From: a bacterium
GTDB taxonomy: Bacteria > Electryoneota > JAOADG01
Length of the DNA stretch: 64,000 nt
Reading direction: 5' to 3'
NCBI GenBank assembly: GCA_963681965.1
Contig: OY820579.1
Span: 736,001 to 800,000 of the forward strand
The stretch's first letter is position 1. Each line of letters starts with the position of its first letter. Shown here piece after piece: positions 41,099 to 60,297 of this stretch. The notes beneath the pieces were generated by a model. It did not search any database and was not told the DNA's origin. It saw nothing but the letters and a program-made list of their open reading frames with translations. The translations under genes were made by a program, and so were the position numbers.

Positions 41099-41160
41099 AG
41101 GGTATCAGGGTAATCCAAAAATCCTTGTATCGTGCGGAGTCTCGCGGAGATTCGAACTCT
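41099..41160 (-). repeat. R7: degenerate tRNA-Ser 3' end + terminator copy
   Basis: gggtatcagg-gtaat-ccaaaaatcc...gtgcggagtctcgcggagattcgaactctc vs tRNA gtgcggagagtgggggattcgaaccctc. Confidence 0.65.
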
Positions 41161-41516
41161 CAGTGCAGATAAACCATACTTCGTACTAATAAACTACAGT
41201 GATCTATCACTAGTCAACGTTCAAGTAATCAAGATATTCTGCTTTCAGATATCTAAAACTACAATCATCGAATTGGACACTTGACATAAAATTTCCCTTA
41301 ATCAGATGGAAAAATCCGAATTTGTATCTAATTTGAGACAGTAACTTGGTCGGGAACCCGTATCGATTCATGCTTACTGATTTCGCCGATAACTTCACAC
41401 ACTTCTTTCGAACCGTTCCAACATTCGATCGTAGCGTAAAAAAATGTGCATTTGGAAAACATCCGTTGATACTCTTTGCCAGTTTAGTTTAATAGAAATT
41501 GGAATGGAGGGTTGTT

Positions 41517-42689
41517 ATGCGGTCGGTATTTTTCATTATTCTCATTGTTCTGATAACCTCTTCTGAATTGCCCGCGCAGCACTGGGTAATGCAAACTTCT
41601 CCCAATCGAACCCGGTTGAATCGAGTTGCATTTGTCGATACAAGTAATGGCTGGGCGGTTGGCAACTCGGGGTTGATTATCCATACCTCGAATCATGGTA
41701 TCAGTTGGAATATCCAAACCAGCAATACCCCAAAGACGCTGCGAGATCTAGCATTCGTTAGTCCATCAACCGGATGGGTAGTCGGCGACAGTGGTTTGAT
41801 CTTACACACTACCGACAGCGGGAATAGTTGGAATCCGCAGATTAGCGGCACATTGAATTTTCTCAATGGTGTGGATTTTGTCGATTCGCTATACGGGTGG
41901 ACAGTCGGTACGAGTTGGATCGGAGATACGACCAGTGTAATATTGCATACCACCGATGGTGGCAATGTTTGGTCTCGACAATTCTGCGGTTCCGTCGATG
42001 CACTCACTTCCATTCAATTCATCGACCGCGACCATGGTTGGATGTCGCACGATCGTGGTGCCGTGTATCGAACCCAGAATGGCGGCAGCACCTGGCGGGG
42101 TTGCTTTATCGAATGGTCGCTTTTCATGTCGTTGTACCAAGTATCGATGGTCGATTGCGATCATGGTTGGGTTGTGGGTGGCAATGGCGGTATGGTTTTA
42201 CACTCATTCAATGTCGATAGTATCTGGCGTCGCCAACCGAGTGGGATGCTGTATTATTTTTCGGGAGTTGCTAGTATCGACACCAATACTTGCTGGGTGG
42301 TTGGCGAAAATGGCAACATCCGGCACACGCTGAATGGCGGAACCACTTGGCTTCGAGACACGATCGGCATAACAAGAAATATTCGCGGAGTATCTTTTAT
42401 CGATGCGATGAATGGTTGGGCGGTCGGGGACAGTGGAACGATTTTATACTACCATCGTGCTCCGCTGCAAGTCCCTCAGAATTTTACGATCGCAGCCGAT
42501 ACACCGGCAGTAAATCTTAGCTGGTCGGCGGTTCCGGGGGCGGGAATCCAGTATAATATTTATCGTGAAGACGTGCCCTATCACTCATTTCATACTTTGG
42601 TGGGAACGACTTCGGATACGACTTACTTAGACTTAATACAGCCCGCAACGACTTGTCACTATTATGTTGTTCGAGCATATGCACCGTGA
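41517..42689 (+). CDS. Secreted YCF48/BNR beta-propeller protein with C-terminal FN3-like domain
   Basis: GW.VG.SG.I.HT..GG..W repeats; VNLSWSAV...YNIYR. Confidence 0.85.
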   Translation: MRSVFFIILIVLITSSELPAQHWVMQTSPNRTRLNRVAFVDTSNGWAVGNSGLIIHTSNHGISWNIQTSNTPKTLRDLAFVSPSTGWVVGDSGLILHTTDSGNSWNPQISGTLNFLNGVDFVDSLYGWTVGTSWIGDTTSVILHTTDGGNVWSRQFCGSVDALTSIQFIDRDHGWMSHDRGAVYRTQNGGSTWRGCFIEWSLFMSLYQVSMVDCDHGWVVGGNGGMVLHSFNVDSIWRRQPSGMLYYFSGVASIDTNTCWVVGENGNIRHTLNGGTTWLRDTIGITRNIRGVSFIDAMNGWAVGDSGTILYYHRAPLQVPQNFTIAADTPAVNLSWSAVPGAGIQYNIYREDVPYHSFHTLVGTTSDTTYLDLIQPATTCHYYVVRAYAP

Positions 42690-42757
42690 GAGACTGTCTG
42701 TTTTAATTGAACAAGATTCGGAAGTGGAGTGAAAAAATTATAGAAAAATTGGATGAA

Positions 42758-43210
42758 TCAGTGTGGCGATACGGTCGGGGATCGACCGGAAATTTGATTC
42801 CGAGAACGTTTCACCGCTCTCTTGGTTTTTGTGTTTCGTTTTGGTGTGGTGTTGAAGAGATAGTGTATGGGAATTCCCAATCCCTCATGAAGTTTCGCAA
42901 TCATCATCTTGCTGAGATTTCGATGACCGGACAACACTTCATAAACCCTGCTACGTGAACCGATAAATGGTTCCAAGTCGCGATTGGTTAATCCTTGCTG
43001 TTCCATAACAAATTTGATCAGGTCGACGGGACTCACATTGACCGTTTTTAGCGAGCTGTGTTCATCATCATAACGTTGCATCAGAACGGCAATCAGTTCT
43101 ATGGTATCTGCTTCCGGCGAATTGGGTAGTGGATTGAGTGCAATCAAGCGATCCAGCTCGACGAGTGCCGCCTGATACTCTTCCGGGGTTTTAATTAGTT
43201 TCAGCACCAT
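42758..43210 (-). CDS. higA: HigA-family HTH antitoxin
   Basis: IKTPEEYQAAL, MEQQGLT..DL..IGSRSRVYEVL.G.R.LS..MI..L. Confidence 0.9.
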   Translation of the reverse strand: MVLKLIKTPEEYQAALVELDRLIALNPLPNSPEADTIELIAVLMQRYDDEHSSLKTVNVSPVDLIKFVMEQQGLTNRDLEPFIGSRSRVYEVLSGHRNLSKMMIAKLHEGLGIPIHYLFNTTPKRNTKTKRAVKRSRNQISGRSPTVSPH

Positions 43211-43218
43211 TTCGATGG

Positions 43219-43506
43219 TTACTCCAAGCGCAGTTTGTCGTACTCGGCATGAGTGCCGATCCAAACAATCCGAACGACATTTGCCACGTAGATCGCTTGC
43301 ACAATCAATCGATGTTTATTACCGCGAACATTGAAAATGACCCGATTATCGTGTAGAAAACTCGCTGTTGCAAAGCGCTGTTTGATTTCATGGCTAGTTT
43401 TCCATTTGGCTTCCGAAACCAGCAACACCCAAGCTTTCAGCGCAACTGCCGCATCGGGATGTGATCTTGCATATTGATCGAGTATTGTTCGGTTCGCGAT
43501 CAGCAT
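43219..43506 (-). CDS. higB: HigB-family toxin
   Basis: RVIFNVRGNKHRLIV, WIGTHAEYDK. Confidence 0.92.
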   Translation of the reverse strand: MLIANRTILDQYARSHPDAAVALKAWVLLVSEAKWKTSHEIKQRFATASFLHDNRVIFNVRGNKHRLIVQAIYVANVVRIVWIGTHAEYDKLRLE

Positions 43507-43511
43507 AATCT

Positions 43512-43540
43512 AATATACGGTGTTCCCATATTGGGAACAA
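43512..43540 (-). promoter_or_regulatory. higBA promoter with operator palindrome, probably leaderless
   Basis: TTGTTC-N17-TATATT ending 5 nt before ATG; palindrome tgttccca-tat-tgggaaca at 43521-43539. Confidence 0.7.
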
Positions 43541-43553: not shown

Positions 43554-43592
43554 AAAAAAGAAACCGTGTTTCAGAACAACACCCTGAAACCC
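43554..43592 (-). repeat. R6: degenerate tRNA-terminator hairpin copy
   Basis: aaaaaag...gtgtttcaga-acaacac-cctgaaaccc. Confidence 0.6.
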
Positions 43593-43649: not shown

Positions 43650-44573
43650 TTATCCCATCATCGGCAGGAGTTGTTCGATCCGATTGATCGCTGCAGCTTC
43701 GATCTGTTGCGCTTCCTTCAGCAGCTCTATCTTCTTTTCGCTAGATATTGACTTGTCGCTGACCTGATACAAGGCTTCGGCGATTTGCGTGTAATCCGCG
43801 ATAAAAGGTTCCGTGACTGCGGCAAACAGCGGATACTTCGTGCCGATTTCCTGAAAATACTTCACTGCGAGTTTTCGACTTTCGGTCCACACCATTCCGT
43901 TCCACCAGTTTCCATGCTCGCTACCGTGACCGGACTCGACCCCTTTGATCCAGTTGGCATATGCGCCACTTCCAGTCGCATAGGGTGCATGTGAATACTT
44001 TTGCGGGTTGCGATGGAAATCGACTGCCAGCTTGAGGCTATCGCGGATCACGGTGAGTTCTTTGGCAGGCGTTGCTTTCGCAAACGAGAAGAACTCGACG
44101 TGACATTCGTCTTTTATTTCCTCCCAACTACCGAACGTCAGATGCGCCGGTGGAAAATCGGTCACTTGCGGCGCCCACGGCTGTGCGGTCAAGAAACCGG
44201 TGTCGTCGTACCCGGTGATCAGTTGATGCTCCATATTGCTGAGTGAACAAGGGATTCCCTGATCGAGCTTTTCAATCAACAGCGCGTCGAGTTGTTGCCG
44301 TTCTTCCAACGAATTGTTCATCGTATACGATCCGTGGACGGACATCACGATCCCGAGGTTCTCGATCCGCCGAATTGTTTCGCGCATATCCCAGCAGTAC
44401 GGTCCGCTGGGACAAATCTCCTCATGCACATTCATCAGAAACGCGAATCCGCTGCCACCAAACAACCAGGGGGTACTGACCTCGATCTTGAAATAATCGC
44501 TGACACCATGCAGTACTCCGATCAACGTGGAACAATAAGGTGGCATCGTAAGATTTGGTAGGTTTTTTGTCAT
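43650..44573 (-). CDS. Hypothetical protein (possibly BtrH/peptidase-C39-like fold)
   Basis: WLFGGSGFAF, CPSGPYCW, ITGYDD; function not recognised. Confidence 0.65.
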   Translation of the reverse strand: MTKNLPNLTMPPYCSTLIGVLHGVSDYFKIEVSTPWLFGGSGFAFLMNVHEEICPSGPYCWDMRETIRRIENLGIVMSVHGSYTMNNSLEERQQLDALLIEKLDQGIPCSLSNMEHQLITGYDDTGFLTAQPWAPQVTDFPPAHLTFGSWEEIKDECHVEFFSFAKATPAKELTVIRDSLKLAVDFHRNPQKYSHAPYATGSGAYANWIKGVESGHGSEHGNWWNGMVWTESRKLAVKYFQEIGTKYPLFAAVTEPFIADYTQIAEALYQVSDKSISSEKKIELLKEAQQIEAAAINRIEQLLPMMG

Positions 44574-44656
44574 GACGGTTTCCTCGGTATGATTACTTTA
44601 TAAAATAACTAATCGCGATAAAAGACTCAACCTGTGAAATACGATTCTCATCAAAA

Positions 44657-45643
44657 TTACTGCGGTGGACTAACCAAAGTGATTACGACATTTCCTTTTT
44701 TGTGTCCAAGGTCGACATAGCGATGCGCTTCAGCAATTTGCTCTAACGGGTATCGTCGATCGATCACGGCTCGATATTTACTCTGTTCGAATAAATCCTT
44801 CAGGATACTTAGATCGGATATTTTTTCGCTGTGCGAACGTAAACCGGTTGCGTGAAATTTTGCTTTCTTGCTTCCGGCAATCGAGGTCATTAGGACACTT
44901 ACTATCATTCCGAATGATATCCCTGCCTCGAGAAAAATCCCATTCGCTTCCAATGAACGTTTGCACTGCGAAAAAGAAATCTTGCCCACAGTATCGAAGA
45001 TGATGTGGTATTTCTCACCACTCTTGCTAAAATCTTCTTTGGTATAGTCGATCACTTTATCCGCGCCGATGGATTTAACCAACTCCAGATTTGTTCCACT
45101 ACACACTCCCGTGACTTCCGCGCCGAAGAATTTGGCTAGTTGCACGGCGGCAGTGCCGACACTACCGGAAGCGCCATAAATTAGAACCTTTTGCCCACTC
45201 TGGATTTTTCCCTTATCTCGCAAAAAAGGCAATGCGGTTAAGACACCATCGACGCTGGCAGCAGCTTCTTCAAAAGAAATGCTGACGGGCTTAATAGTAA
45301 GTTCGCCGTTTTCAGGTAGACAGATGTATTCTGCATTGGCGCCAAATTTGGGACCGGTAGATCCGAAAACTTGGTCGCCGTTTTTGAAACGGGTCACATT
45401 ACTTCCAATTGCAACGATCTCACCGCCGAACTCTTCGCCAAGAGTATTCAATTTTGGTTTTGTGAAACCCATAAATAATCTTGAGATAAATGGCTTTCCC
45501 TGTCGGAAAATACATTCAGTGGCTGTGACTGTTGTTGCGTGAATTTTTATCAACACTTCGTTGGGCTTCGGAGTTGGTTGATCCACTTCGCGGATCTGGA
45601 TGACATCTGGTGACCCATACTTGGTGACTATCGCTATTTTCAT
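44657..45643 (-). CDS. NAD(P)-dependent MDR-family oxidoreductase (quinone reductase-like)
   Basis: KYGSPDV, VLIYGASGSVGTAAVQLAK, GHKKGNVVI. Confidence 0.92.
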   Translation of the reverse strand: MKIAIVTKYGSPDVIQIREVDQPTPKPNEVLIKIHATTVTATECIFRQGKPFISRLFMGFTKPKLNTLGEEFGGEIVAIGSNVTRFKNGDQVFGSTGPKFGANAEYICLPENGELTIKPVSISFEEAAASVDGVLTALPFLRDKGKIQSGQKVLIYGASGSVGTAAVQLAKFFGAEVTGVCSGTNLELVKSIGADKVIDYTKEDFSKSGEKYHIIFDTVGKISFSQCKRSLEANGIFLEAGISFGMIVSVLMTSIAGSKKAKFHATGLRSHSEKISDLSILKDLFEQSKYRAVIDRRYPLEQIAEAHRYVDLGHKKGNVVITLVSPPQ

Positions 45644-45793
45644 GCCGCTATTTTTCCAAATTAGAAGTATTCAGGAGACGACTATTCTCGCACCGGATTC
45701 ATTTTGCTAAGTCGATGATTTGTATTTTGATACTGTAAGTTAAGTGGAGTTAATAAACTGGTTGGTTGCACTACTTCTCCTCGTATTCTAAAT

Positions 45794-45857
45794 GGATTGC
45801 AGGGATAAGTCCTGAAACCCCTCAAAATCTGGAGCGGAGGTCTTCTAGGATTGAGAA
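45794..45857 (-). repeat. R5: degenerate tRNA-Ser 3' end + terminator copy
   Basis: ggattgcagg-gataagt-cctgaaaccc...atctggagcggagg vs tRNA flank atctggtgcggaga. Confidence 0.7.
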
Positions 45858-45891: not shown

Positions 45892-46803
45892 TTACAAGCC
45901 CAAAGCTTCTAAGATCGGCTTCTCATATTCACCATCTTCTCCCGGATAACGTAAATTCTGCGCGCCATTGTCAACGGCAATCTGGCGAAGGATACTCTCT
46001 CCTGCCGGCATTGATCGTGGTTCGATCGAATAAACAGGGTCTGCAAACGCTTCCTCAGGATCGATAATCATCCAACCATTCGAATGGTACATCGCGATAA
46101 TATCCTTAAGGAAAAACGCGTTAATTTGGTTGTGATGTAACAGAAGGATGTGCTTAACCGATCTGCCGAGATACTTTTGTGACAGACTGTCGTAGAAGAC
46201 TGAGCGATTCCAAAGGTGATTAAGATAGGCGGTTTTTAATTTCTGTAGATCATAATCAGGAGTTTGTGTGAGACGCTTTACCATCCAATCGTCATAGAAC
46301 CAATCGCTGGCGTCAATCGAGACGGGCGCTGATCGGTAATCAATCGACTTCATAAATTGGCGGAATTGATCGCGTTTATCGAGTGTGTTTCCCTCTTTCA
46401 AGTAAGTAAATCGGAAGAGTTTCCGGTACCCATAAAGCTTCGAGATGGCAGAATCGCAACCGAGTACTTCCTTTTCGTAATCCTCAAGTGACACTTTTTG
46501 GCTGTTAAAGTACGGGTGATGCACCGTGTGATTTCCGATCAGATGTCCCTCGATACCCCATTGCCGGATCAATTTCATTTGCAGAGCGCCACCGTTCCGG
46601 ATAGTAACGAATAAAATGGCTTTTACACTGTCGGCATGAAGTTGCGAAAGAATGGCATTATTCCGGGCAGTGACGGAGACGCCTGCGCGATCCGCCATTA
46701 GGGGTCCGTCGTCAAAAGTGAATGCGATGGATCGAGCAGATACGGATGAACAAATACAGATACAGGTTACAAGAGCACATACCGAATGGAGGAAAAATCG
46801 CAT
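45892..46803 (-). CDS. Polysaccharide deacetylase (NodB family), secreted
   Basis: TFDDGP, GNHT.HHP, FRFTYL, ILLLH. Confidence 0.9.
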   Translation of the reverse strand: MRFFLHSVCALVTCICICSSVSARSIAFTFDDGPLMADRAGVSVTARNNAILSQLHADSVKAILFVTIRNGGALQMKLIRQWGIEGHLIGNHTVHHPYFNSQKVSLEDYEKEVLGCDSAISKLYGYRKLFRFTYLKEGNTLDKRDQFRQFMKSIDYRSAPVSIDASDWFYDDWMVKRLTQTPDYDLQKLKTAYLNHLWNRSVFYDSLSQKYLGRSVKHILLLHHNQINAFFLKDIIAMYHSNGWMIIDPEEAFADPVYSIEPRSMPAGESILRQIAVDNGAQNLRYPGEDGEYEKPILEALGL

Positions 46804-47180
46804 TGAATTCTCACGCTAATCGAATATTAATGATCACTGGTAAGATAATGAAGTCAGATTGCGAATTAAACATTATTCAGAAATTAAGTTAAACCGATCC
46901 AGCACTACTAGAAGCGAATGCACGTTGAGGTAGAAAAAAATCTTAATCCGATTTAATCGTCACTCCGATCTCGCTTTGCGTTAATGATCGAGTTGTTTTT
47001 CCGACGGCAACATCTGCCTTTGCCGAGATTCGGTCTCTAACAATAAATACTGCATTGGTATCTGTGCCCTTTCGATCCAATCGCTCGCGTATCCCATCAG
47101 TATCTCCCTCCTTATCTTAAATTCTGACTAAATTTTTGGGATTGTGAATCGGAGGGGGCAACTCAAGAGGGAAGACTGGA

Positions 47181-48299
47181 TCAAGACTGTTCAATCAGTT
47201 TTGGAAGTGTTATTGATACAGTTGTTCCTTGCCCTATCTGACTTTTAATTACTAAACTCCCTTGATATAGCTCCGTTAGTTCGCGAGCAATAACTAAACC
47301 CAACCCTAAACCCTGCTGTTCAAACGTTTCACGATCGAATTGATTAAATGAATTGACGCATTCTATTTGTTCAGGTAGCATGCCTCGTCCGACATCTGAA
47401 ACCTGTATTAATATAGTATTTCCTAAATCATGAGTTGTTACAACAACCATCGATGAAGTATTAGAGAATTTTAACGCGTTATCTAGAATTTCTTCAAGTA
47501 TTTTTTTTAAATGAATTGATGAAATCCGTAGAATGTAATCCTGAATAATTAGCCTTATGTCATTCGGGCGTTGATATTGTTTCATCAAAGACGTTGAAAT
47601 TGTCGTTATTATGTCGATCAACGAAGTCAATCCATCAGATATTAAATTCTCAACGCAAATAGTATTCAATTTCCAGTAATAAAGTTGATTCATTAATAGA
47701 ACATTCTCTAACATATGAAGAAGTCGCTGACCAGACCGATAAATCCGATTACCAAATTTTGGAATATCATCTGATGGAATATTGTTAACCTGCATCATAA
47801 CTTGAGCATACCCAAGAATCGAGCTAAGGGGAGTCCGAAACTCATGGGGAAGCGTGTAGAAGATCATATTCCTAACTTCTTTGAACTGAACGTCATAATA
47901 ATCCTGTAGAGAGTCCCTTTTTTTTAACTGTGTTGCCACACAATCAACAAGCTCCTGCACAGTCAGTGGTTTTATCAGGTAATCGTCCGCACCTAAGTAC
48001 ATTCCATGTCGAATTTCATGTTTCTCTCCGCGGCTTGTAAGGAACACAAACGGGATATTGTCGAAATAGTGTTTCTCTTTTAGCTTTTTCAAGAACGAAT
48101 AACCATCCATTATAGGCATGCTGATATCACACAGAATCATTTTCGGGTTTGAGGCGTCTAATCGCTCCAACCCTTCCTCTCCATTCTGGGCTTGGATGAT
48201 TTTATACCCAGCAAACTCAAGTGTTTGAACGATAAGTTGACGCGTCTCATCTTCATCGTCAACGACAAGAATCAACGATTTTTCACTGACTGGTTTCAT
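47181..48299 (-). CDS. Hybrid receiver-histidine kinase
   Basis: VVDDE, CDISMP, LPHEFRTPL, DNALKFS, GLGLGL. Confidence 0.9.
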   Translation of the reverse strand: MKPVSEKSLILVVDDEDETRQLIVQTLEFAGYKIIQAQNGEEGLERLDASNPKMILCDISMPIMDGYSFLKKLKEKHYFDNIPFVFLTSRGEKHEIRHGMYLGADDYLIKPLTVQELVDCVATQLKKRDSLQDYYDVQFKEVRNMIFYTLPHEFRTPLSSILGYAQVMMQVNNIPSDDIPKFGNRIYRSGQRLLHMLENVLLMNQLYYWKLNTICVENLISDGLTSLIDIITTISTSLMKQYQRPNDIRLIIQDYILRISSIHLKKILEEILDNALKFSNTSSMVVVTTHDLGNTILIQVSDVGRGMLPEQIECVNSFNQFDRETFEQQGLGLGLVIARELTELYQGSLVIKSQIGQGTTVSITLPKLIEQS

Positions 48300-48410
48300 T
48301 ACTTGAACTCCAAATTGCCATGAAATTCCAATGACCATATTTACGTGTAAAGTCGCTGCGATCTTCTATTTCCGGACAGGAATTTCGCAAACCTGTGTGT
48401 CATATCATCT

Positions 48411-48830
48411 TCATGGAACGAGATGGCACTCGCCCTTGTGTTTATTGTAAGCGATGTGCGCATCATTGATAGCCTGTAACAACTCTTTACATGCAAAAGG
48501 CTTCTTTAAAAAATAAAAGATATGACTTAGATTTATAGCTTTAGTTAGAACGTTGTAATCTGCAATTCCGGAGATAACCACACGAATGACATTGGGATAT
48601 TCGACACGAACTTTTTGTAAAAGTTCGACTCCATCCATGCCGGGCATATGAAAGTCGCTTATAATGATCTCAAAGGGGCTCTCGGATAAAATTTTCAGAG
48701 CCGCAGTTCCGTCAGCAGCAAAGGATGCTTCCAACTTTTCGATTTCAGCGAAACCACGATACAATTGCAAGAATATCTCTTCATCATCGACAAAGAGAAC
48801 TTTCGGGGTCGTGTTTGTTTCACTCATCAT
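48411..48830 (-). CDS. Single-domain response regulator
   Basis: LFVDDE, SDFHMP, KPF. Confidence 0.88.
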   Translation of the reverse strand: MMSETNTTPKVLFVDDEEIFLQLYRGFAEIEKLEASFAADGTAALKILSESPFEIIISDFHMPGMDGVELLQKVRVEYPNVIRVVISGIADYNVLTKAINLSHIFYFLKKPFACKELLQAINDAHIAYNKHKGECHLVP

Positions 48831-48934
48831 ATTGACCTCAGTGGTATTTCAACATCTCCATTGCGAACTCGGAGCAAATCAACCATTCGTTGCTTTTGTG
48901 AAAACAAAATGAGTCCTTTGCCCAAATATGACAA

Positions 48935-49294
48935 TTATTTATATTGATCGAGCACATTAAACAGATCTCGAAGGTTAAACGGCTTCGGTAATAGATGTTC
49001 AACAGTCCCATTTTGAACTGCCTCGACAACTTCAGGCGATCCTTCGAAGCCGGTTGCTAGAATCCGTTTTATTCCTGGGAAGCTCAATTTCACATAGGCT
49101 AACAGCTCGGTTCCCGTCATATCTGACATGTTATGATCCGCCACAATTACATCGATTTTATTTTCTTGCAGCGTCGTCACTGCTTTTTTACACTCCGATT
49201 CGAAGTAAGCGTGTAAATTGAACGAACTAGCGTATGTTCGATAAAAGTTAAGCATGATGTCTTCATCGTCTACGAATAAAATGCTCTCGCTCAT
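48935..49294 (-). CDS. Single-domain response regulator
   Basis: LFVDDE, ADHNMS, KPF. Confidence 0.88.
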   Translation of the reverse strand: MSESILFVDDEDIMLNFYRTYASSFNLHAYFESECKKAVTTLQENKIDVIVADHNMSDMTGTELLAYVKLSFPGIKRILATGFEGSPEVVEAVQNGTVEHLLPKPFNLRDLFNVLDQYK

Positions 49295-52251: not shown

Positions 52252-52515
52252 CTAGTTACCACTAGACAGCATCCCAGTGACCCATGCGGCATACATTGCA
52301 ACAATCACAACAGCCAGGTAGAATGTTACCCCAATAATGCGAGTTTCTAATACGTCCAGAACGTACTTCCGGACTAAAATTTCCAACACCAGCGCAAGAA
52401 AAAGTATGTCTGCATTCCGGAGTACTTTCCTTCATAGAAGGTGCACTTCACTTGTCATCGAGTAAACTCTATCGGTCGTGTGGTTGTGACTATTGCTTTT
52501 CGACAGTCAATTCAT
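52252..52515 (-). pseudogene. Decayed membrane-sensor fragment (DUF4118-like)
   Basis: In-frame with internal stops: ...ILFLALVLEILVRKYVLDVLETRIIGVTFYLAVVIVAMYAAWVTGMLSSGN*. Confidence 0.45.
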
Positions 52516-52736
52516 CCTAACAATCGGATTCATATCAAGTAAAAAAGATGGTTCTGGGACAGGGGAGTAACTGGAAGTTAGGTTTATCGCGAAACCCAAT
52601 TGCAACTCGGTCGAAGGACGGTTTAGAATAAACTATACACTATCATCAAAGTGATACGAGACTTTTACTGCTTTTGGGGAGAGTACGTGTGATTGGGGGA
52701 ACCGACTAGATTGTTACAGTTGTCACCGCACGATGA

Positions 52737-53021
52737 CTACTTGATATCTTTCATCGATAGTGCCAATGAAACAATGATTATGACGGCGAAGACGATTTGC
52801 AGCTTTTTGTTCAGTCTGGGATTTCGGTCTTCTAGAAACGCGTAACCTAATGACATCGATGTAAAACCAATAAAGCCTATTGCCGGCAGATACGATTTAT
52901 CGACAAGACTAAATATTGCCATCGCAAGAAAGAAAATTACACCACAAATGTAGATGATTTTTCCCACTTTGGATTTCTCGATATCCTGTTTCCAGATCGA
53001 TTGTTTTTCCATCTTTTCCAT
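52737..53021 (-). CDS. Small three-TM membrane protein
   Basis: GGAG RBS; three hydrophobic helices. Confidence 0.65.
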   Translation of the reverse strand: MEKMEKQSIWKQDIEKSKVGKIIYICGVIFFLAMAIFSLVDKSYLPAIGFIGFTSMSLGYAFLEDRNPRLNKKLQIVFAVIIIVSLALSMKDIK

Positions 53022-53136: not shown

Positions 53137-53195
53137 AAAAAGGGTTTCGGGACAATATCCTGAAACCCTTATGCATTGCGGAGATTGGTGGATTC
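53137..53195 (-). repeat. R4: tRNA-Ser 3' end + terminator copy
   Basis: aaaaagggtttcggg-acaatat-cctgaaacccttat...tgcggagattggtggattc. Confidence 0.85.
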
Positions 53196-53207
53196 TGGTT
53201 TCGGTCG

Positions 53208-54281
53208 CTACTTGGTCAAGATCATTTTCTTGGTAGTCGTAAAGTTACGAGTCGACAACGTGTAAAAGTAGTTACCGGTCGGCAGACCGGTCGCATTGAA
53301 CTCAACTTTATAGGTGTTGGGCGTGTGAATGCCGTTCACGAGTTCTGCGACCGATTGACCCGTTTCATTGAATACCGACAGCTTCACTAGACCAGTCTCG
53401 TGGATGCTGTAGGTAATGCTGGTGGACGGGTTGAAAGGGTTGGGGTAATTCTGAGCCAGATTGTATTTGATCGGGATTTCACCCAGCGCCTTGACTGCTG
53501 GCGTCGCATTGATGACAAATCGACTCATTTTTTCGATACCATCAAGCGATACGTCGGCAATACGATAATAATAAGTGGTTCCATTGATAACGCGAGTGTC
53601 TTCGAAGGAATATTCATTGGGTGTGGAAGATGTGCCATGTCCAGTCACCTGCGTAAGCAATTCGCCGGTTGCATCTGCAGTGGTTGAGCGATAGAGGTTG
53701 AAATGCGCGTTGTTGATTTCGGTCTCGGTTCGCCAGCGGAGCATGACTTGGTGATCGGCACCCACGGCAGTAAACGACGTCATTTCTACCGGAAGCACAT
53801 TGTTGTTGAATTCGAGCTCCGCTAAATGAAATGTACCTGAATAATAGGTGCCGGTCGATAGCTTGATTTCCCAGATGCCGTTCGGATTTACACCATTGAA
53901 AAGAAAATTCAAATTGCCACCGGTGTTGTAGAATCCGGTAAACGGACTTGCGCCGGCATTCATCGCTATCGGAGAACCGTCCCAAAACACGGTATTCGTC
54001 AGATTTACTCCATTAGACAAATTCAGGACTACTTGTTCGGCACGACCCGGCGCTTTAATCAGTAGCGTCAACTGTCCGATCTGATCGTAGGTCACGTTCA
54101 GTCGGACTTTCAAACTGGTGATTGCCGTGATTGGCGTCGAGACGTTGACGAAGACATGTCCCATGTTGTAAGTACGGATCTGGTCGGATGCGGTTGAACT
54201 GAACATCGGTGTAAAAGATGCAGCCATCGCAATTGTACTGCTGAAAAGCACGGCAAGTATCGCAAATCTAACAAGCTTCAT
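53208..54281 (-). CDS. Secreted proprotein-convertase P-domain-like protein with LPVE module and T9SS-like C-terminal domain
   Basis: F.G.NPNG.W.I; LPVEMTSF; NYPNPFNPST...KKMILTK. Confidence 0.8.
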   Translation of the reverse strand: MKLVRFAILAVLFSSTIAMAASFTPMFSSTASDQIRTYNMGHVFVNVSTPITAITSLKVRLNVTYDQIGQLTLLIKAPGRAEQVVLNLSNGVNLTNTVFWDGSPIAMNAGASPFTGFYNTGGNLNFLFNGVNPNGIWEIKLSTGTYYSGTFHLAELEFNNNVLPVEMTSFTAVGADHQVMLRWRTETEINNAHFNLYRSTTADATGELLTQVTGHGTSSTPNEYSFEDTRVINGTTYYYRIADVSLDGIEKMSRFVINATPAVKALGEIPIKYNLAQNYPNPFNPSTSITYSIHETGLVKLSVFNETGQSVAELVNGIHTPNTYKVEFNATGLPTGNYFYTLSTRNFTTTKKMILTK

Positions 54282-54379: not shown

Positions 54380-54448
54380 AAAAAAAAGGCTTCAGGACGA
54401 TATCCTGAAACCAATTAACAATGCGGAGAGACTTCCGGGGATTCGAAT
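54380..54448 (-). repeat. R3: tRNA-Ser 3' end + terminator copy
   Basis: aaaaaaaggcttcagg-acgatat-cctgaaacc...tgcggagagacttccggggattcgaa. Confidence 0.88.
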
Positions 54449-54462
54449 CTTGGTTGGCGAAA

Positions 54463-54951
54463 TTATTCCCCGTTGAACGCTCGCTCGAGCACGGCAATAT
54501 CCAATTTTTTCATCGGGAACATCGCTTGTGCCATTCGATTCACTTTCTGTGGATCGGGATCGCTGAACATTTCACCCAGTTGGTGTGGGACGATCTGCCA
54601 CGACAAACCGAACCGATCGATCAACCAGCCGCATTGACTCTCTTGACCACCGTCGGCAGTCAGCTTGTTCCACAATTCATCGATTTCTGCCTGCGAATCG
54701 CACTCGACATGGAGTGAAAATGCTTCGTTCAATTTGTAATGCGGACCGCCATCGATTGCCATATAGGTCACCCCGTCCAACTCGAACAGTGCCGTGAGCA
54801 CTTTCCCCTTCATCTCCGGCATGAAGTCACCATAACGCGTGATCGATATGATGCGGGAATTTTGGAACAGCGATACATAGAAATTGATCGCTTCTTCGGC
54901 GTTACGGTCGAACCAGAGAAAGGGGGTAATTTTCTGTTTCATGGTAAGCAT
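54463..54951 (-). CDS. VOC family protein (PhnB/3-dmu-9 3-methyltransferase-like)
   Basis: QKITPFLWF, CGWLIDRFGLSWQIVP, MKKLDIA. Confidence 0.92.
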   Translation of the reverse strand: MLTMKQKITPFLWFDRNAEEAINFYVSLFQNSRIISITRYGDFMPEMKGKVLTALFELDGVTYMAIDGGPHYKLNEAFSLHVECDSQAEIDELWNKLTADGGQESQCGWLIDRFGLSWQIVPHQLGEMFSDPDPQKVNRMAQAMFPMKKLDIAVLERAFNGE

Positions 54952-55288
54952 TCCAGTTAGATGATTGAAAAAATGTAATACGATATATTCGGAAAGCAGA
55001 CAAACCAGTTTGCGCTATCTCGATCACTGCCATTTGTGATTTTAGTTCAGTATTAATATATAAGTGGTTATTAAAGCTTATATTGCGCACATTATTACAT
55101 CAAAACCAAATACCTTAAACGTTTTATTGCCAGAAAGCCAAAATTTAACTAAATTAGTTAATGCTTAACTGAATTTGAAGAAAAAAGATAAAATATAATC
55201 ACTATAACCAAACTTGTTTAATAAATTTAGATGGCATTGCCGCGCATTTAAACAAAATAAAGAGAGCTTAACTGTTTTAGAGGTAAAG

Positions 55289-56815
55289 ATGAACGATTTA
55301 ACTCTTGCCGATGAATCAACCAGACCGTTAGGTTATGTGGCACTCTGCCATCGATACCAGATCGATCCGGTAACCTTGTGGCACGAATCGTTTGTGTCCC
55401 GAAGTGGAGTACATAGTAAGCTTGATCATGATGATAAGATAACAGAGATCTTTCCGTTACAGTACGATCCGGGGGATCGGGATTGCGACCAACTTGCATT
55501 CGCTCTGAAATATGATGGTGTGAATCTCGCCCTTCTGACTCAACTTTTTGCGAGAATGCCAGTATCCGAGCTGGTTGCGTACATACAAGAAACACCGCTC
55601 GGCAAGTTTCGTCGGCAGATCTGGTACTTCTATGAGTTTCTAACGGGAAACCGGCTCCCAATCGATGATCTGCCACCACGAGGCGGGTATGTTGACTTAC
55701 TCGATCCAGAGGTGTATTACACGATCTCGCCAACCACCCCAATCCGTCGTCAACGTATCAACGAGAATTTGCTCGGAGATCGCCGGTTCTGTCCGATCAT
55801 TCGCAAATCGGATACGTTAAAGAAGCACAATGATACGGATTTCCGCAAGAAGATGGACGAAATTGTTGCTCAATATCCCAAAGATCTACTCACCCGGGCG
55901 ATGAGCTACTCGTTTACAAAAGAAACAAAATCATCGTTCGAATTGGAAAAAATCACCCCTTCGGTTCCGAAAACGGAGCGGTTCGTTGCACTTCTGCTTG
56001 ATGCCGAGCGGGTAGATTATTGTGTGAAGAGTCAACTGATCGAATTGCAAAATCGAATCGTCGACAATCGATATCGACAAACGGATTATCGTAGCGATCA
56101 GAACTACATCGGTGAGATAATCGATTCTGGTCGCGAACGAGTACATTATGTCTGTCCCAAGCCGGCGCATATTCATGAGCTTATGGCTGGTCTTCTCACT
56201 AGTCATTTGCGACTAGAGAAGGGAGGTGTACCCCCTATCGTACATGCGGCGATCGTTGCCTTTGGTTTTGTTTATCTGCACCCCTTCGACGATGGCAATG
56301 GTCGTATTCACCGCTTTCTAATCCATAATGTGTTAGCCCGGCGCGGCATTACTCCACCGGGTATGATCTTTCCCATTTCCGCGGTGCTGGTAAACAATAA
56401 ACACGATTACGATCATGCCTTGGAAGTACTCTCGAAACCGATCATGAGTGTCGTCGATTACAAGTTGGATGAAGATGGGTGTATGAGTGTTGAAAACGAC
56501 ATCTCGTATTTCTATCGTTACATGGACCTTACGGTCCAAACCGAGTATCTGCATCGTTTCATACAGATTGCGATCGAATGTGAGGTAGTACAGGAGTTGG
56601 CATTTCTCGTAAATTACGATGTCGTCAAGGAACGCATTCAGGATGTTGTGGATATGCCTGAACGTAAGCTCAATCTGTTTATCAGAATTTGCCGCGAGAA
56701 TCGTGGTCGCTTGTCGAAAGCGAAGCGTAATGATCACTTCGACGAGCTGAGCGACGAAGATGTCGCGAAGTTAGAGGCAATTATACGCGAAGGTTTTACC
56801 GTAGAGGAAATGTAA
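55289..56815 (+). CDS. Fic-domain protein
   Basis: HPFDDGNGRIHR canonical Fic motif; KETKSSFELE; GAGG RBS before ATG 55289. Confidence 0.9.
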   Translation: MNDLTLADESTRPLGYVALCHRYQIDPVTLWHESFVSRSGVHSKLDHDDKITEIFPLQYDPGDRDCDQLAFALKYDGVNLALLTQLFARMPVSELVAYIQETPLGKFRRQIWYFYEFLTGNRLPIDDLPPRGGYVDLLDPEVYYTISPTTPIRRQRINENLLGDRRFCPIIRKSDTLKKHNDTDFRKKMDEIVAQYPKDLLTRAMSYSFTKETKSSFELEKITPSVPKTERFVALLLDAERVDYCVKSQLIELQNRIVDNRYRQTDYRSDQNYIGEIIDSGRERVHYVCPKPAHIHELMAGLLTSHLRLEKGGVPPIVHAAIVAFGFVYLHPFDDGNGRIHRFLIHNVLARRGITPPGMIFPISAVLVNNKHDYDHALEVLSKPIMSVVDYKLDEDGCMSVENDISYFYRYMDLTVQTEYLHRFIQIAIECEVVQELAFLVNYDVVKERIQDVVDMPERKLNLFIRICRENRGRLSKAKRNDHFDELSDEDVAKLEAIIREGFTVEEM

Positions 56816-56934
56816 AAAAATGGGTGAGTGTCGTCTCACCAGCTCTAATTTTGCCGCGTGATGTGGTCGAATTACTGACCGTCCTTCAATGCGACCCTTT
56901 CTGATAGTAAATCTGTAAGTAGTATCCTAAACAC

Positions 56935-56969
56935 AAAAAAGGGCTTCAGGAACCGGTCCTGAAACCCTT
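56935..56969 (-). repeat. R2: tRNA-terminator hairpin copy
   Basis: aaaaaagggcttcagg-aaccggt-cctgaaaccctt; arms identical to those at the tRNA. Confidence 0.88.
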
Positions 56970-56994
56970 GTACGACGAAGCATCATCGACGAAT

Positions 56995-57423
56995 TCACGA
57001 GTCGGTGGATGACCTGTTTGCATACTTGCGATACGCCTCGCGCCCCTCGGAATTCCACCAGGCATCATATCCCTTCCAATCCTCGATCTCGTCGTCGTCG
57101 CCATTACCGCGGCGGGACGGTTTGTGAATTGAGATACCCGGTGCCTCGATACTCACTTCTTCATGATCGCAACACTCGTGTTTGTGTTTCCATTTACCGT
57201 GGTGATTCATGCTGCCGAACAGGAATCTGCCCAGTATCATCAAACCGAATGCCTGCCAATAGGTGATTTGCTTCAGCGCGAACAGATCCGGCATCAGCCA
57301 GTTCCACAACCACATCACCACGAATCCGAATACCAATGCGAAAATCACTGCGGCGAAGACTCCACCGACTACTTTCACCGCGAATCGCGGCTTGTGGCGA
57401 TGTACATGAATATGAGCGTTCAT
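56995..57423 (-). CDS. Membrane protein coupled to the ECF sigma (candidate anti-sigma)
   Basis: ATGA overlap with sigma stop; VVMWLWNWLMPDLF..ITYWQA.G; His/Cys-rich tail. Confidence 0.75.
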   Translation of the reverse strand: MNAHIHVHRHKPRFAVKVVGGVFAAVIFALVFGFVVMWLWNWLMPDLFALKQITYWQAFGLMILGRFLFGSMNHHGKWKHKHECCDHEEVSIEAPGISIHKPSRRGNGDDDEIEDWKGYDAWWNSEGREAYRKYANRSSTDS

Positions 57424-57977
57424 TTTGTTTGATCCTCTTCGATTAAATCTGCCAATGCTTTTTGTAACGACGCCTCTGCCCGGTGTTTGCGCGAGAGCAG
57501 GGTCCCGATGGGGATGTGCCACAACTCCGACAATTCCCGGAACGCATACCCATCCAATTCCGTCGCAACCCAAACGGCACGTTGTTTGGGCTCCAACTGA
57601 TCCAGTGCCGCCACCAATCGTCGTTGGGTCTCCCGCTGATTCAGTACCGTTTGCATATCGTACTGCAATGCGGGATGCGTCTCCTCCAGCGAAGGCTTGC
57701 CTTCCGGGGGAACTTGGCTTAATGAGACTTGGTGCTTCCGATGACGGAGATAGTCGATTGTCCGAAATTGAATCGATCGGTAGATGTATGCGCCGAGGTT
57801 TTCGATTCGTTCACCGATATCTACCTGATTGAAGAGATCGATCATCAAGCCGCTGACAATGTCCTCGACTTCCATCGTCGACAAAGATTCATACTTCGCC
57901 CGGAATGTTTTCACCAGCTTCTGATATTGGTTGCTGAAGAATTGGCTAAGGTTGTTGTGTTGTTCTTGTTTGGTCAT
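57420..57977 (-). CDS. ECF RNA polymerase sigma factor
   Basis: EDIV, YIYRSI..R.ID..R, region 4 IPIGTLLSRKHRA. Confidence 0.9.
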   Translation of the reverse strand: MTKQEQHNNLSQFFSNQYQKLVKTFRAKYESLSTMEVEDIVSGLMIDLFNQVDIGERIENLGAYIYRSIQFRTIDYLRHRKHQVSLSQVPPEGKPSLEETHPALQYDMQTVLNQRETQRRLVAALDQLEPKQRAVWVATELDGYAFRELSELWHIPIGTLLSRKHRAEASLQKALADLIEEDQTK

Positions 57978-58168
57978 GTCTCGGTTATGATCTCATCCTC
58001 TATCGGTATGACGAATCAGCGAGGGTATTTATTGCATCAGAGATTTTACTGAAGTTAGGATAAAAAACAGCGTGGGAGAACTAGCGTCGGTGCTTCGAAG
58101 TAACTCGCGCGCATGGGGAGATAGAAATCTCGATTCATTTTGGCGGAATAATTAGTTGACAACGACCT

Positions 58169-58222
58169 AAAAAAAGGACTTCAGGACACGATCTTGGAAC
58201 TCTGATCCGGTATGGATATTCG
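58169..58222 (-). repeat. R1: degenerate tRNA-terminator copy
   Basis: aaaaaaaggacttcagg-acacgat-cttggaactc. Confidence 0.7.
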
Positions 58223-58351
58223 CGATGTGTTCCGTTTCGGGTATCTGGCATTTTTAAAAACCATATTGATATAACAAACGAATATAACTTATATTACGTA
58301 CGTTATTTCAGGGTTTTTATCCACAACCAAACATCAGTCTATGGAGGGTTC

Positions 58352-58993
58352 ATGAGAAAATTAGCTATGTTGGTCGTTCTGTTCACAATTGCAATGACCG
58401 CAATGACAGCTAACGCTAAAATCGGTTTCGACGTTGGACTTCGTCTTAGTTCGCTGGGATACGGTGTCGAAGTCAGTAAAACGGTTTTTAAGAAATTAGA
58501 CACCCGTGCCACGTTCCAACTGGGAAGTTATCAAACGGATGGCACGATCGAATCGAAAGAGTTGAAGTACGACACGAAGTTTAATTTGTCGTCGTGGAGT
58601 CTCTTGGCCGATTATCACGTTTTTGGGGGCAACTTCTTTACCACTGTCGGCGTGATCGGTAATGGTAATAAGATCGACGCTACAGTGGGCCCATCCGCAT
58701 CGCGTCGGATCGGTAGCCGAACTTATACAGCCACAGAGCAGGGATCACTGACCGCGAATATCACGTGGCCTTCGATGGCCCCTTACGTTGGTGTCGGCTT
58801 TGGCGGACAACAGTCAAATGAGGGTCATTGGCGATTCGAGTTGGGTGCGATGTTTCAAGGTTCTCCCAAAGTCAGCATGAGTGGTACCGGAATGATTGCA
58901 CCGTCCGCCGCTAACGCTCCCACTTTGGAAGACGATCTCGCCGGCGCCAAGACTTGGCTTGTCACAAGTATCAGCTACCGGTTCAGCCTCTAA
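58352..58993 (+). CDS. Outer-membrane beta-barrel protein
   Basis: Signal peptide; SSLGYG.E, APYVGVGF, ELGAMFQGSP, C-terminal SYRF. Confidence 0.8.
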   Translation: MRKLAMLVVLFTIAMTAMTANAKIGFDVGLRLSSLGYGVEVSKTVFKKLDTRATFQLGSYQTDGTIESKELKYDTKFNLSSWSLLADYHVFGGNFFTTVGVIGNGNKIDATVGPSASRRIGSRTYTATEQGSLTANITWPSMAPYVGVGFGGQQSNEGHWRFELGAMFQGSPKVSMSGTGMIAPSAANAPTLEDDLAGAKTWLVTSISYRFSL

Positions 58994-59014
58994 GCTTGGA
59001 AAGGAACAATACAC

Positions 59015-60085
59015 ATGAAAACGAAAAAAATAACTCTGCTGTTTACTCTGGTGGGTGCGTTGTTGCTCCTCGCGATGGGCTGCTCGGTTAAGAATCCCAA
59101 CGACAGCTTCAATCTCCTGGTGGAAGGCTCTTTTGAAAAAGCGATTATGGATAGCCTTCAGACGTCTGCTACCGGCTTGGATACAACACTCGTAACGAAT
59201 CAGCGGCTGATTGGGACAAGTTCATCAGACGAAACAAATGCTACGGGCGTTATCGTCGTTCCACTGTCAATGACTTTAGCACGAAGCATTGCAGCTCTTC
59301 TTCACAGTGGTAGTAGTTTAATACAAATCATTAGCGGTTCTGTTATTAACAATTCGACCAATTCTTTAGACTTCTTTGTGTACTTGGATACGAGCAGTAC
59401 GTATGGTACCGGGATTTCAGCTCGCACGAGTTCGAAAATTTGTAGCTTACACGTGAATGTGGGTACTTCAAGTGAAATGCTTGAAAATGGGACGTATTTT
59501 AATACTACTTTCAACTCGTCAATGCTGGGTAGTAGGAACAACCCGCGCCTTGTGTTTCTGTACCTTGTGGTGATTGGAAACCCAACTGCGGATCTCACAA
59601 TTGAAACGATGCGTTTAACAGTACCACCAAATATTGCTGTTATCGGTAACGTAACTCCCAATGATGTGAGTCAATACACACTGGAGGACTTGTCTGAGAT
59701 CGGGTTGGGTGGTACAATTAGGGCAGGTGCTGGTTCTGCGAACAATGTTGACTCACTTCTCGTTACCTTTGCCTGCAAATCGGGCACTGGTACCGATACG
59801 ACGATAACCGGTTTAACAACGATTGGATCTGTCATAGCTCGCCGTACAGACTACACAACCAATGGTTTCATTGTATCAATCGATTCACTCTCGAGTCAAA
59901 TCCTCGGTAACGCTACGGGAAGGGCTGCATTGATGGCACGCTTTCGGGAGTTATTCCCCCCCACAAGTCTTGGGAGTTTCTTCCGGGTTGACATCACTGC
60001 TTACCACAGAAACTCGTCTCAAGTGATGCCTTTTCATGTCAACGATCTTCGCATTATCACGAATGCACAGGTTAGGCGAAACTAA
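59015..60085 (+). CDS. Hypothetical lipoprotein
   Basis: Lipobox AMGC; Ser/Thr-rich beta-type sequence. Confidence 0.7.
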   Translation: MKTKKITLLFTLVGALLLLAMGCSVKNPNDSFNLLVEGSFEKAIMDSLQTSATGLDTTLVTNQRLIGTSSSDETNATGVIVVPLSMTLARSIAALLHSGSSLIQIISGSVINNSTNSLDFFVYLDTSSTYGTGISARTSSKICSLHVNVGTSSEMLENGTYFNTTFNSSMLGSRNNPRLVFLYLVVIGNPTADLTIETMRLTVPPNIAVIGNVTPNDVSQYTLEDLSEIGLGGTIRAGAGSANNVDSLLVTFACKSGTGTDTTITGLTTIGSVIARRTDYTTNGFIVSIDSLSSQILGNATGRAALMARFRELFPPTSLGSFFRVDITAYHRNSSQVMPFHVNDLRIITNAQVRRN

Positions 60086-60109
60086 CGGAACCCACCTATA
60101 ATCGTGAAG

Positions 60110-60136
60110 CGGGTCGGAGATACTCCGACCCGTTTT
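60110..60136 (+). terminator. Rho-independent terminator
   Basis: cgggtcggag-ata-ctccgacccg-tttt. Confidence 0.8.
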
Positions 60137-60167
60137 CATTGAAAACTCGATCTTATTTTTACGCCCT

Positions 60168-60200
60168 AAAAAAGGGCTTCAGGATAATTTCCTGAAACCC
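60168..60200 (-). terminator. Terminator of the tRNA-Ser cluster (R0, template of the repeats)
   Basis: Minus strand GGGTTTCAGG-AAATTAT-CCTGAAGCCC-TTTTTT. Confidence 0.85.
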
Positions 60201-60210
60201 TTATCTGGTG

Positions 60211-60297
60211 CGGAGAGTGGGGGATTCGAACCCTCGGTACGGTTTCCCGTACGCACGCCTTCCAAGCGTGTGCCTTAAACCACTCGGCCAACTCTCC
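60211..60297 (-). tRNA. tRNA-Ser(GGA)
   Basis: GGAGAGTTGGCCGAGTGG...TT-GGA-AG...GTTCGAATCCCCCACTCTCCG. Confidence 0.96.

Follow-up and report, generated by a model that had tools for sequence, protein, structure and literature searches.

An array of gene blocks at tRNA-Ser(GGA) that probably represents a fossil tandem stack of integrative elements

In contig OY820579.1, we analyzed a stretch of 64,000 nt (the window; bases 736001-800000 of a single 4.24-Mb contig, whose genome is labeled G000 below) in which a unit of about 85 nt recurs. It begins with the final ~35 nt of tRNA-Ser(GGA), to which a short linker, a terminator hairpin and a T-run are joined. All copies, R0 at the intact tRNA gene and R1 to R7 behind it, have the same orientation as tRNA-Ser(GGA), span 41.1-60.2 kb of the window and bound seven gene blocks of 1.2-7.3 kb, here called cassettes, with one to six genes each on both strands. 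We consider it probable that the array is a tRNA-seeded genomic island in which integrative elements, now fossil, stand in tandem at tRNA-Ser(GGA). This reading draws on the restriction of the unit to this tRNA-Ser locus; on an active site with an adjacent tyrosine integrase in the relative G003; on signs that the hairpin is carried by a family of integrase elements (an arm stretch and an integrase 5′ remnant); on tRNA-targeting integrase islands with perfect repeats in the same genome; on a downstream content that varies among relatives, including a Fic gene found in three of 79 genomes of the phylum (its own included) and in none of the three family relatives; and on hairpin retention that follows the direction of transcription. 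Island growth of this kind (tRNA-seeded, of the cis-mobilizable element (CIME)/accretion type) is a known mode, and the growth model is already in print.

The window contains four tRNA-Ser genes. The GGA gene, whose neighbors are tRNA-Ser(GCT) and tRNA-Ser(TGA), is the sole GGA isoacceptor among the 47 tRNAs of the genome. It served as the target of integration (attB side) and seeded the array. Its 3′ trailer on the minus strand forms a hairpin whose arms measure 11 nt and whose loop measures 5 nt, followed by a T-run (60170-60200). The original prediction had placed further units in tRNA orientation at seven positions, and copies are present at all seven (Table 1). When the copies were aligned to the tRNA and its trailer, all had the same right edge, where the T-run ends. 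On the left, homology begins at tRNA position ~40 in R3, 60 in R7, 71 in R4, 83 in R5 and 84 in R1; with R2 and R6, which comprise the hairpin only, left edges range from tRNA position 40 to 98. These edges agree with the earlier assignment, by which R3, R4, R5 and R7 keep tRNA sequence and R1, R2 and R6 mainly the hairpin. The repeats are 50-83% alike, and their loops differ. The hairpin folds strongly in R0, R2, R3, R4 and R6 (z -2.6 to -6.8; none of 200 shuffles was as good); no strong fold is seen in R1, R5 and R7 (z -0.1 to -0.9). Spacers of 48-190 nt separate the cassette operons from the repeats. Five copies had been described as starting ~10-60 bp from a minus-strand stop codon, which held roughly, the hairpins of R2-R6 being found 28-72 nt downstream of such a codon. 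The hairpin was also compared by eye with a Xer/dif-like core site (11-nt arms, short spacer), for which there was no support; the loops differ among copies.

The unit stands out statistically and is confined to the array. Used as a single-sequence nhmmer query against the 4.24-Mb genome (E < 0.01), R0 (91 nt) recovered R1, R3, R4 and R7 and, outside the array, matched only the 3′ end of tRNA-Ser(GCT); a second iteration added R2 and the 3′ end of tRNA-Ser(CGA), another real gene. R7 has a single-sequence E-value of 7e-4 genome-wide. Leave-one-out profiles recovered R0 (E 9e-12), R1 (1e-3), R2 (4e-6), R3 (4.5e-8) and R4 (2e-11), but genome-wide not R5 (E 1.5), R6 (6.4) or R7 (0.83); their best match beyond the eight sites was never better than E 0.22. 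A profile built from all eight copies found nothing further in the whole genome at E < 0.01, a test that is circular, whereas the single-sequence and leave-one-out searches are not. With a regular expression for the hairpin that allowed four substitutions, every convincing copy lay inside the window and the other genome hits were unrelated palindromes; one hairpin-like hit, at genome position 2886247, falls within the coding sequence of an integrase and was set aside as chance. The tRNA-derived part is significant by itself in R3, R4 and R7. Six copies (R0-R4 and R7) are solid, and R5 and R6 are tentative, being credible in context only, by position and orientation and, for R5, by a 12/13 match to the acceptor end and linker. 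Beyond this genome, a scan for the hairpin pattern in one genome per bacterial species returned 21 loci, of which only the tRNA-Ser locus of the congener G001 is related; the other 20 are palindromes in unrelated taxa.

The same tRNA site was then compared among family relatives, which amount to three other genomes (G001, a congener; G002; and G003, of a sister genus), two of them broken at the locus. The proximal flank, with LptG, LptF, a 23S-IVP protein and the tRNA-Ser cluster (TGA, GCT, GGA), is conserved in G001-G003. In G003, the intact tRNA-Ser(GGA) is directly followed by a tyrosine integrase (PF00589, E 5e-35), a truncated HsdR and a 79-nt tRNA fragment that is one base off the tRNA at the last position. 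There follow a block of ~1 kb with a single gene, Mrr, and without integrase, and a 46-nt perfect tRNA fragment joined to an R0-type linker and hairpin (fragment 2); the series ends with an NnrU-like gene and an older tRNA fragment with hairpin (fragment 3). tRNA-Ser(GGA) is a live integration site in this family, and small integrase-less blocks are already forming there. In G001, the hairpin is followed by a Pyr_excise pyrimidine-dimer glycosylase gene, which has no counterpart in the window, and the contig ends there. Thus, the first genes downstream of tRNA-Ser(GGA) differ between G000, G001 and G003, that is, in every readable relative. Among the matches listed, at least 10 of the 78 other genomes in the phylum have internal tRNA-Ser(GGA)-like 3′ fragments; one of these, G068, has two such fragments 2.7 kb apart around an integrase-less phage remnant. 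The view that the repeats are attachment (att) remnants of serial integration at one tRNA, as originally predicted, is supported by their specificity for tRNA-Ser(GGA) and by the active site in G003.

By tblastx, gene order around the array is scrambled in G003 and in G001, in the latter around DUF1003 and the extracytoplasmic function (ECF) pair. At the DNA level, the array gave only short matches of 64-76% identity to G001-G003 besides the tRNA units, and island and backbone are not separable by DNA synteny because a neighboring 20-kb control region matched no better. A metagenome scan with LptF returned four loci at 27-35% identity and no closer relative.

The sequence behind the hairpins links the unit to integrase elements. 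Behind the hairpin of fragment 2, G003 has a directly repeated pair of 10-nt motifs that include GCTAAC; the integrase gene of G003 has this motif ahead of its start codon, too. The window's genome has only seven exact GCTAAC pairs, and five of these belong to the att sites of the tRNA-Arg(ACG) and tRNA-Arg(TCT) integrase islands. By analogy, the GCTAAC repeats would be arm-type integrase sites, which are a feature of lambda-type integrases. The stretch after fragment 2 aligns to the arm sites and the first ~20 codons of an integrase, both of G003's own (p 0.001) and of its 51%-identical relative in G000 (p 0.0003); tblastn at this place did not report an integrase N-terminal match, and only the DNA-level test is significant. 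As arm sites and ~20 integrase codons follow fragment 2, its block appears to have begun as an integrase-bearing element. In the window, the post-hairpin stretch of R2 matches the arm region of G003 fragment 2 (p ≤ 0.00025) and that of fragment 3 (p 0.0012), and the stretch downstream of R1 resembles the one downstream of fragment 3 (p 0.008). The readable cassette starts (G003 fragment 2 and R2) thus resemble an integrase-proximal arm, which points to integrase loss after integration. On these alignments, the linker and hairpin common to the copies most likely belong to the integrase-proximal arm of one element family; in line with this, R0 resembles G003 fragment 2 more closely than it does the trailer in the congener G001.

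The genome of the window also hosts integrase islands with perfect repeats at tRNA-His, tRNA-Arg(ACG), tRNA-Arg(TCT) and tRNA-Pro(GGG). Their att identity blocks end within 7 nt of the tRNA end at tRNA-His, at the tRNA end at tRNA-Arg(TCT) and within 2 nt of it at tRNA-Pro(GGG). Several arrangements at such sites deserve mention in their own right. At the far end of the tRNA-Arg(ACG) island (C1:2154978-2155216), a perfect 42-nt fragment is followed ~125 nt further on by a strongly diverged tRNA-like fragment; the arm region 3′ of the latter holds three GCTAAC motifs, and its last 64 aligned nt are identical to the arm of the active integrase. A decayed core here lies beside perfect arms. The closest G000 relative of the G003 tRNA-Ser integrase (51%) lies beside the 5′ half of a tRNA-Pro(GGG), together with a type I restriction system (C1:2869019-2886585). 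The matching 3′ fragment is inverted and 17 kb away, adjoining the intact tRNA-Pro(GGG), an arrangement that looks like an integrase-mediated inversion between two att sites.

Two segments resemble the array in having no integrase. At tRNA-Val(TAC) (G000:C1:2949612-2954359), a 158-nt copy with 2 mismatches lies 4.6 kb downstream of the tRNA; it begins at tRNA position 24, takes in the terminator hairpin and reaches 106 nt past the gene. The two copies enclose an IS3-family element (10 copies in the genome), at whose end the proximal repeat ends exactly, and a DUF7948 protein secreted by the type IX secretion system (T9SS), but no integrase. This segment resembles the Ser array at a young stage or, alternatively, the outcome of an integrase deletion mediated by the insertion sequence (IS). 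At tRNA-Thr(CGT) (G000:C1:3367469-3391470), a diverged 169-nt copy (tRNA 3′ part and 113 nt of trailer) lies 23.8 kb downstream; the segment carries T9SS beta-helix proteins, a chemoreceptor and a NiFe-hydrogenase-like cluster, and an integrase was not found.

If the array is a fossil stack, elements of one tyrosine-integrase family would have integrated successively into the 3′ part of tRNA-Ser(GGA). After integration into a tRNA gene, everything downstream of the crossover in the restored gene is element-derived, so that the element must bring a working tRNA tail and a terminator. Each incoming element would accordingly have restored the tRNA with its own copy of the 3′ end and its own trailer, in the order linker, terminator hairpin, T-run, two arm-type sites and integrase gene. 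With each arrival, the previous tRNA tail and all that followed it would have been moved away from the tRNA, beyond the new cargo. Later, integrase genes and arm sites would have been deleted and the displaced tails would have decayed, with useful cargo operons being kept. A displaced hairpin would end up at the end of the newer block, where it would be reused as operon terminator if transcription is co-directed. The folding data are suggestive of such reuse: after a minus-strand gene, four of five copies fold strongly (R2, R3, R4 and R6), after a plus-strand gene neither of two (R1 and R7). On this model, all seven window cassettes would once have had an integrase of their own, and the hairpins would have been kept by selection.

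Several observations weigh against the model. The link between hairpin and orientation rests on seven sites (Fisher's one-sided p ~0.14, hand calculation), and R5 and R6 are not significant genome-wide. Divergence shows no gradient with distance, R4, the fourth copy, being the most R0-like and R1, the first, among the most decayed; this counts against the model because stacking in place with neutral decay would predict a gradient. Arm-type homology to the G003 fragments is significant only in R2 and R1, marginal in R3, R4 and R5 (p 0.05-0.1) and not found in R0, R6 and R7. The original prediction saw no integrase in the window, and this was confirmed: Pfam detects no integrase or recombinase domain there, all 11 PF00589 matches of the genome lying elsewhere. 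A tblastn search of 12 integrases against the window reached a best E of 0.09, with no remnant after any of the eight copies, and DNA comparison of the window copies with integrase 5′ regions gave p ≥ 0.028 and likewise no remnant. An integrase start codon noticed by eye after R4 was dropped (p 0.06-0.1 in the arm-region test, 0.1 or worse in the integrase 5′ test). Seven clean integrase losses are thus assumed, not seen. No cassette has matching end motifs, as none of the seven shares a 9-mer between its ends (chance ~11% per pair). Finally, the relatives are few and distant, and gain and loss of cassettes can be compared only at the G003 locus.

Other origins have to be weighed against this. 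That the unit is a generic terminator or a repetitive extragenic palindromic (REP)-type hairpin with tRNA-like stretches by chance is practically excluded. Regular-expression, profile, single-sequence and leave-one-out searches found no unit outside the 19-kb array in 4.24 Mb, on which we reject a dispersed repeat of this type, and chance likeness to the tRNA is contradicted by the significance of the tRNA-derived part alone in R3, R4 and R7. The unit also lacks the GTAG head of GTAG-tagged REP hairpins. We also regard as very unlikely a local spread of tail and terminator without site-specific recombination, be it by duplication, homologous recombination or IS-mediated rearrangement. Such spread would account for the variable left edges (tRNA position 40 to 98) and for repeats that extend past the tRNA end into the trailer, unlike the att blocks at tRNA-His, tRNA-Arg(TCT) and tRNA-Pro(GGG); the 158-nt repeat at tRNA-Val(TAC), which ends exactly at an IS3-family element (10 copies), would also fit. 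However, the right edge is constant at the T-run end, every copy is oriented alike relative to the tRNA, the Pfam scan shows no IS in the array, and the G003 locus has integrase-linked events at the same site. Moreover, the trailer seems to belong to the arm of the integrase element, so that long repeats need no separate mechanism.

According to the original prediction, the array arose from integrase-less circles, with catalysis in trans. The cassettes would then never have had an integrase, and CIME-like mini-elements, or circles of cargo and att site, would have been captured at the tRNA by an integrase encoded elsewhere. All seven window cassettes are indeed compact, intact and without integrase trace, and eleven tyrosine recombinases in the genome could act in trans. 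The Mrr block of G003, bounded by the 79-nt (one base off) and the 46-nt perfect fragment, looks recent, and integrase-less segments lie at tRNA-Val(TAC) (158 nt, 2 mismatches) and tRNA-Thr(CGT) (169 nt) in G000. However, the readable cassette starts resemble integrase-proximal arms, one of which keeps an integrase 5′ remnant, and none of the seven cassettes has a shared 9-mer at both ends (chance ~11% per pair). Repeats that are 50-83% alike with different loops argue against recombination among them now, and none of the G000 integrases could be linked to tRNA-Ser(GGA), the one most similar to the G003 enzyme lying beside the tRNA-Pro 5′ half. CIMEs and their accretion with incoming elements are documented, but CIMEs are by definition decayed elements (PMC5704250). 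Catalysis in trans is therefore not supported, and we hold an origin of this kind to be rather unlikely. Quite unlikely, too, is a working capture system in which cargo-only cassettes, each with a handle of tail, hairpin and arm, would be reshuffled at tRNA-Ser(GGA), tRNA-Val and tRNA-Thr by integrases acting in trans. Room for it is left by the missing age gradient, by seven of seven cassettes being without integrase trace and by the near-perfect repeats at the Mrr block of G003 and the tRNA-Val block; if true, it would be a tRNA-based functional analogue of an integron, with an att hairpin that doubles as cassette terminator. Judged from the repeats, present-day mobility of the array is unlikely because they are only 50-83% alike.

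The array had also been called integron-like, which does not hold beyond analogy. Integrons are characterized by IntI, attI and the Pc promoter and by attC-bounded, mostly promoterless, co-oriented single-gene cassettes. The array shares with them, and with clusters of attC sites lacking integrases (CALINs), compact gene blocks, a recurring hairpin-forming site, one platform, and toxin-antitoxin and VOC-type cargo. However, the genome has no IntI (TIGR02249 best match 64 bits, outside the window, versus a cut-off of 265), and nothing attC-like appeared in an Rfam scan of 40000-64000, with no dedicated attC model run; this is in line with the earlier remark that no attC site was visible. The scan returned only three tRNA genes and one family below gathering score that overlaps them. 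In addition, the window repeat combines a tRNA tail with a near-perfect terminator stem and a T-run, the cassettes hold 1-6 genes on either strand, and their spacers can hold promoters of their own. On the missing IntI and attC, the nature of the repeat and operons on both strands, we reject an integron.

The cassettes carry diverse operons (Table 1), and three points on their contents go beyond the table. The 192-aa partner of the ECF sigma factor in cassette B may be an anti-sigma factor. The HigB-like/HTH (helix-turn-helix) pair of cassette G (42758-43506) matches PADLOC PD-Lambda-2 A and B, and is probably a plain toxin-antitoxin pair rather than the three-gene PD-Lambda-2 defense system, because the match to B is confined to the N-terminal third of that profile. 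Within the hybrid histidine kinase gene of cassette E, PAS domains are duplicated, seen at the DNA level as a 300-nt direct repeat (50539-51213, 76% identity, spacing 375 nt).

Table 1 Features of the tRNA-Ser(GGA) array, in order from the tRNA gene to the distal end (positions in the window).
Feature	Position	Strand	Basis or remark
tRNA-Ser(GGA), intact	60210-60297	-	ARAGORN; Rfam tRNA model 51 bits
R0: linker, terminator hairpin (60170-60200) and T-run, now serving the intact tRNA	60160-60209	-	fold -28.8 kcal/mol, z -6.8
Cassette A	58262-60159	+	both genes run toward the tRNA
Cassette A gene without family match	59015-60085	+	no Pfam match
Cassette A gene, outer-membrane beta-barrel-like	58352-58993	+	NCBIfam CarO match E 6.5e-8, far below cut-off; no Pfam match
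R1: diverged; acceptor end, linker, non-folding hairpin, T-run	58162-58247	-	41/55 identical to R0; fold z -0.36
Cassette B	56995-57977	-	ECF sigma and overlapping partner
Cassette B ECF sigma factor	57420-57977	-	Pfam Sigma70_r2, r4_2; NCBIfam sigma70-ECF 60 bits vs cut-off 42.9
Cassette B 192-aa partner, overlaps sigma gene	56995-57573	-	open reading frame (ORF)
R2: intact hairpin and T-run (56935-56974), then degenerate arm-type repeat pair (~56890-56930)	56890-56974	-	30/35 identical to R0; fold z -3.5
Cassette C	54463-56815	both	Fic and VOC genes
Cassette C Fic-domain protein, candidate defense family PDC-S24	55214-56815	+	Pfam; PADLOC PDC-S24 559 bits
Cassette C VOC/3-dmu-9_3-mt family protein	54463-54951	-	Pfam
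R3: longest tRNA fragment (with indels), linker, hairpin, T-run	54380-54484	-	74/104 identical; fold z -6.1
Cassette D: single secreted protein, type IX secretion C-terminal sorting domain	53208-54281	-	Pfam Por_Secre_tail; TIGR04183
R4: closest copy to R0; T-arm, acceptor, linker, hairpin, T-run	53137-53210	-	49/59 identical; fold z -4.4
Cassette E, 38-42% G+C; two-component cluster and deacetylase	45892-53021	-	Pfam; composition
Cassette E PAS-rich hybrid histidine kinase	49299-52103	-	Pfam
Cassette E receiver-kinase	47181-48338	-	Pfam
Cassette E polysaccharide deacetylase	45892-46803	-	Pfam
Cassette E, further: 94-aa ORF, two receiver proteins	within 45892-53021	-	
R5 (tentative): acceptor end, linker, damaged hairpin	45790-45839	-	39/50 identical; fold z -0.9
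Cassette F	43650-45643	-	oxidoreductase and protein without family match
Cassette F zinc-type quinone oxidoreductase	44657-45643	-	Pfam ADH_N, ADH_zinc_N_2; TIGR02824 below cut-off
Cassette F 307-aa protein without family match	43650-44573	-	
R6 (tentative): hairpin only, remodeled, still folds	43558-43592	-	25/35 identical; fold z -2.6; in terminator scan list
Cassette G	41499-43506	both	toxin-antitoxin pair and propeller
Cassette G HigB-like toxin	43219-43506	-	Pfam
Cassette G HTH antitoxin	42758-43264	-	Pfam
Cassette G YCF48/BNR-type propeller protein	41499-42689	+	Pfam
R7: last copy, distal array end; T-arm, acceptor, linker, decayed hairpin	41093-41168	-	54/72 identical; fold z -0.1

Two observations concern the tRNA-Ser genes next to the array. 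Just upstream of each of the three tandem genes lies a G/T-rich block (60284-60348, 60483-60559 and 60764-60813; 74-79% identity), which may be a common promoter or leader region. Similar G/T-rich tracts number 42 in the genome, with only 2 near tRNAs, and are irrelevant to the array. The family below gathering score in the Rfam scan is RF04351 (plastid psbI-rps4 3′ untranslated region), which matched the plus strand over tRNA-Ser genes (60420-60473 and 60211-60253); this is almost certainly an artefact of tRNA-Ser sequence inside the model.

Among described systems, the islands and tycheposons of Prochlorococcus offer a close comparison. The work describing them reports neighboring elements separated only by a partial tRNA, newcomers that push older elements inward, scattered partial tRNAs and fragmented integrases (bioRxiv 10.1101/2020.12.28.424599). 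The array likewise has an intact tRNA at one end, partial tRNAs between blocks and accessory or defense-type cargo, with newer arrivals adjoining the tRNA and older material further in. In contrast to these islands, the window has no integrase, integrase fragment, replication or packaging gene; a scan of 18 cassette ORFs for these tycheposon features found neither a replication or packaging module nor a tyrosine recombinase. Further differences are that the host uses type IX secretion and belongs to a small phylum with poor sampling, that there is no evidence of current activity, and that the displaced unit includes an element-borne terminator hairpin that is better kept than the tRNA part.

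Stacks of the CIME/accretion type usually comprise two or three blocks, which the seven found here exceed. Streptococcal CIMEs no longer have genes for integration and transfer, yet their attL and attR are functional, and a related integrase can mobilize them (PMC5704250). On that description, the array resembles CIMEs in its absent recombination genes, its att-derived repeats at the 3′ end of the target and its tandem stacking; it differs in repeats that are 50-83% alike, decayed arm sites, the lack of paired end motifs and the lack of a conjugative context. CIME-style mobilization of the window array would, from its sequence, be unlikely. Islander-type mapping in Klebsiella pneumoniae likewise shows two tandem islands at one target, tRNA-Leu, which are 11-21 kb long and keep their integrases, and whose attR tRNA fragment can be damaged (PMC4048246). 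In contrast to these two islands, the window blocks measure 1.2-7.3 kb and have no integrases. From REP/BIME-type repeats (BIME, bacterial interspersed mosaic element), the array differs in that its unit has no copies elsewhere in the genome.

Taken as a fossil array, the locus shows how a flexible island can be built and then domesticated in a little-studied T9SS phylum: the tRNA serves as landing pad, the vectors vanish and the cargo stays. What has been retained includes an ECF sigma pair, a two-component cluster, a Fic candidate defense gene, a toxin-antitoxin pair and secreted proteins. A new mechanism would be at hand only if trans-mobilization of integrase-less cassettes were shown. Beyond the textbook picture, the element would bring its own terminator for the tRNA that it repairs, and this terminator is seemingly reused for the neighboring cargo operon. 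For genome annotation, the locus suggests that the boundaries of old modules gained by horizontal transfer can, even where no integrase remains, be traced by decayed tRNA tails and the hairpin that these have in common.

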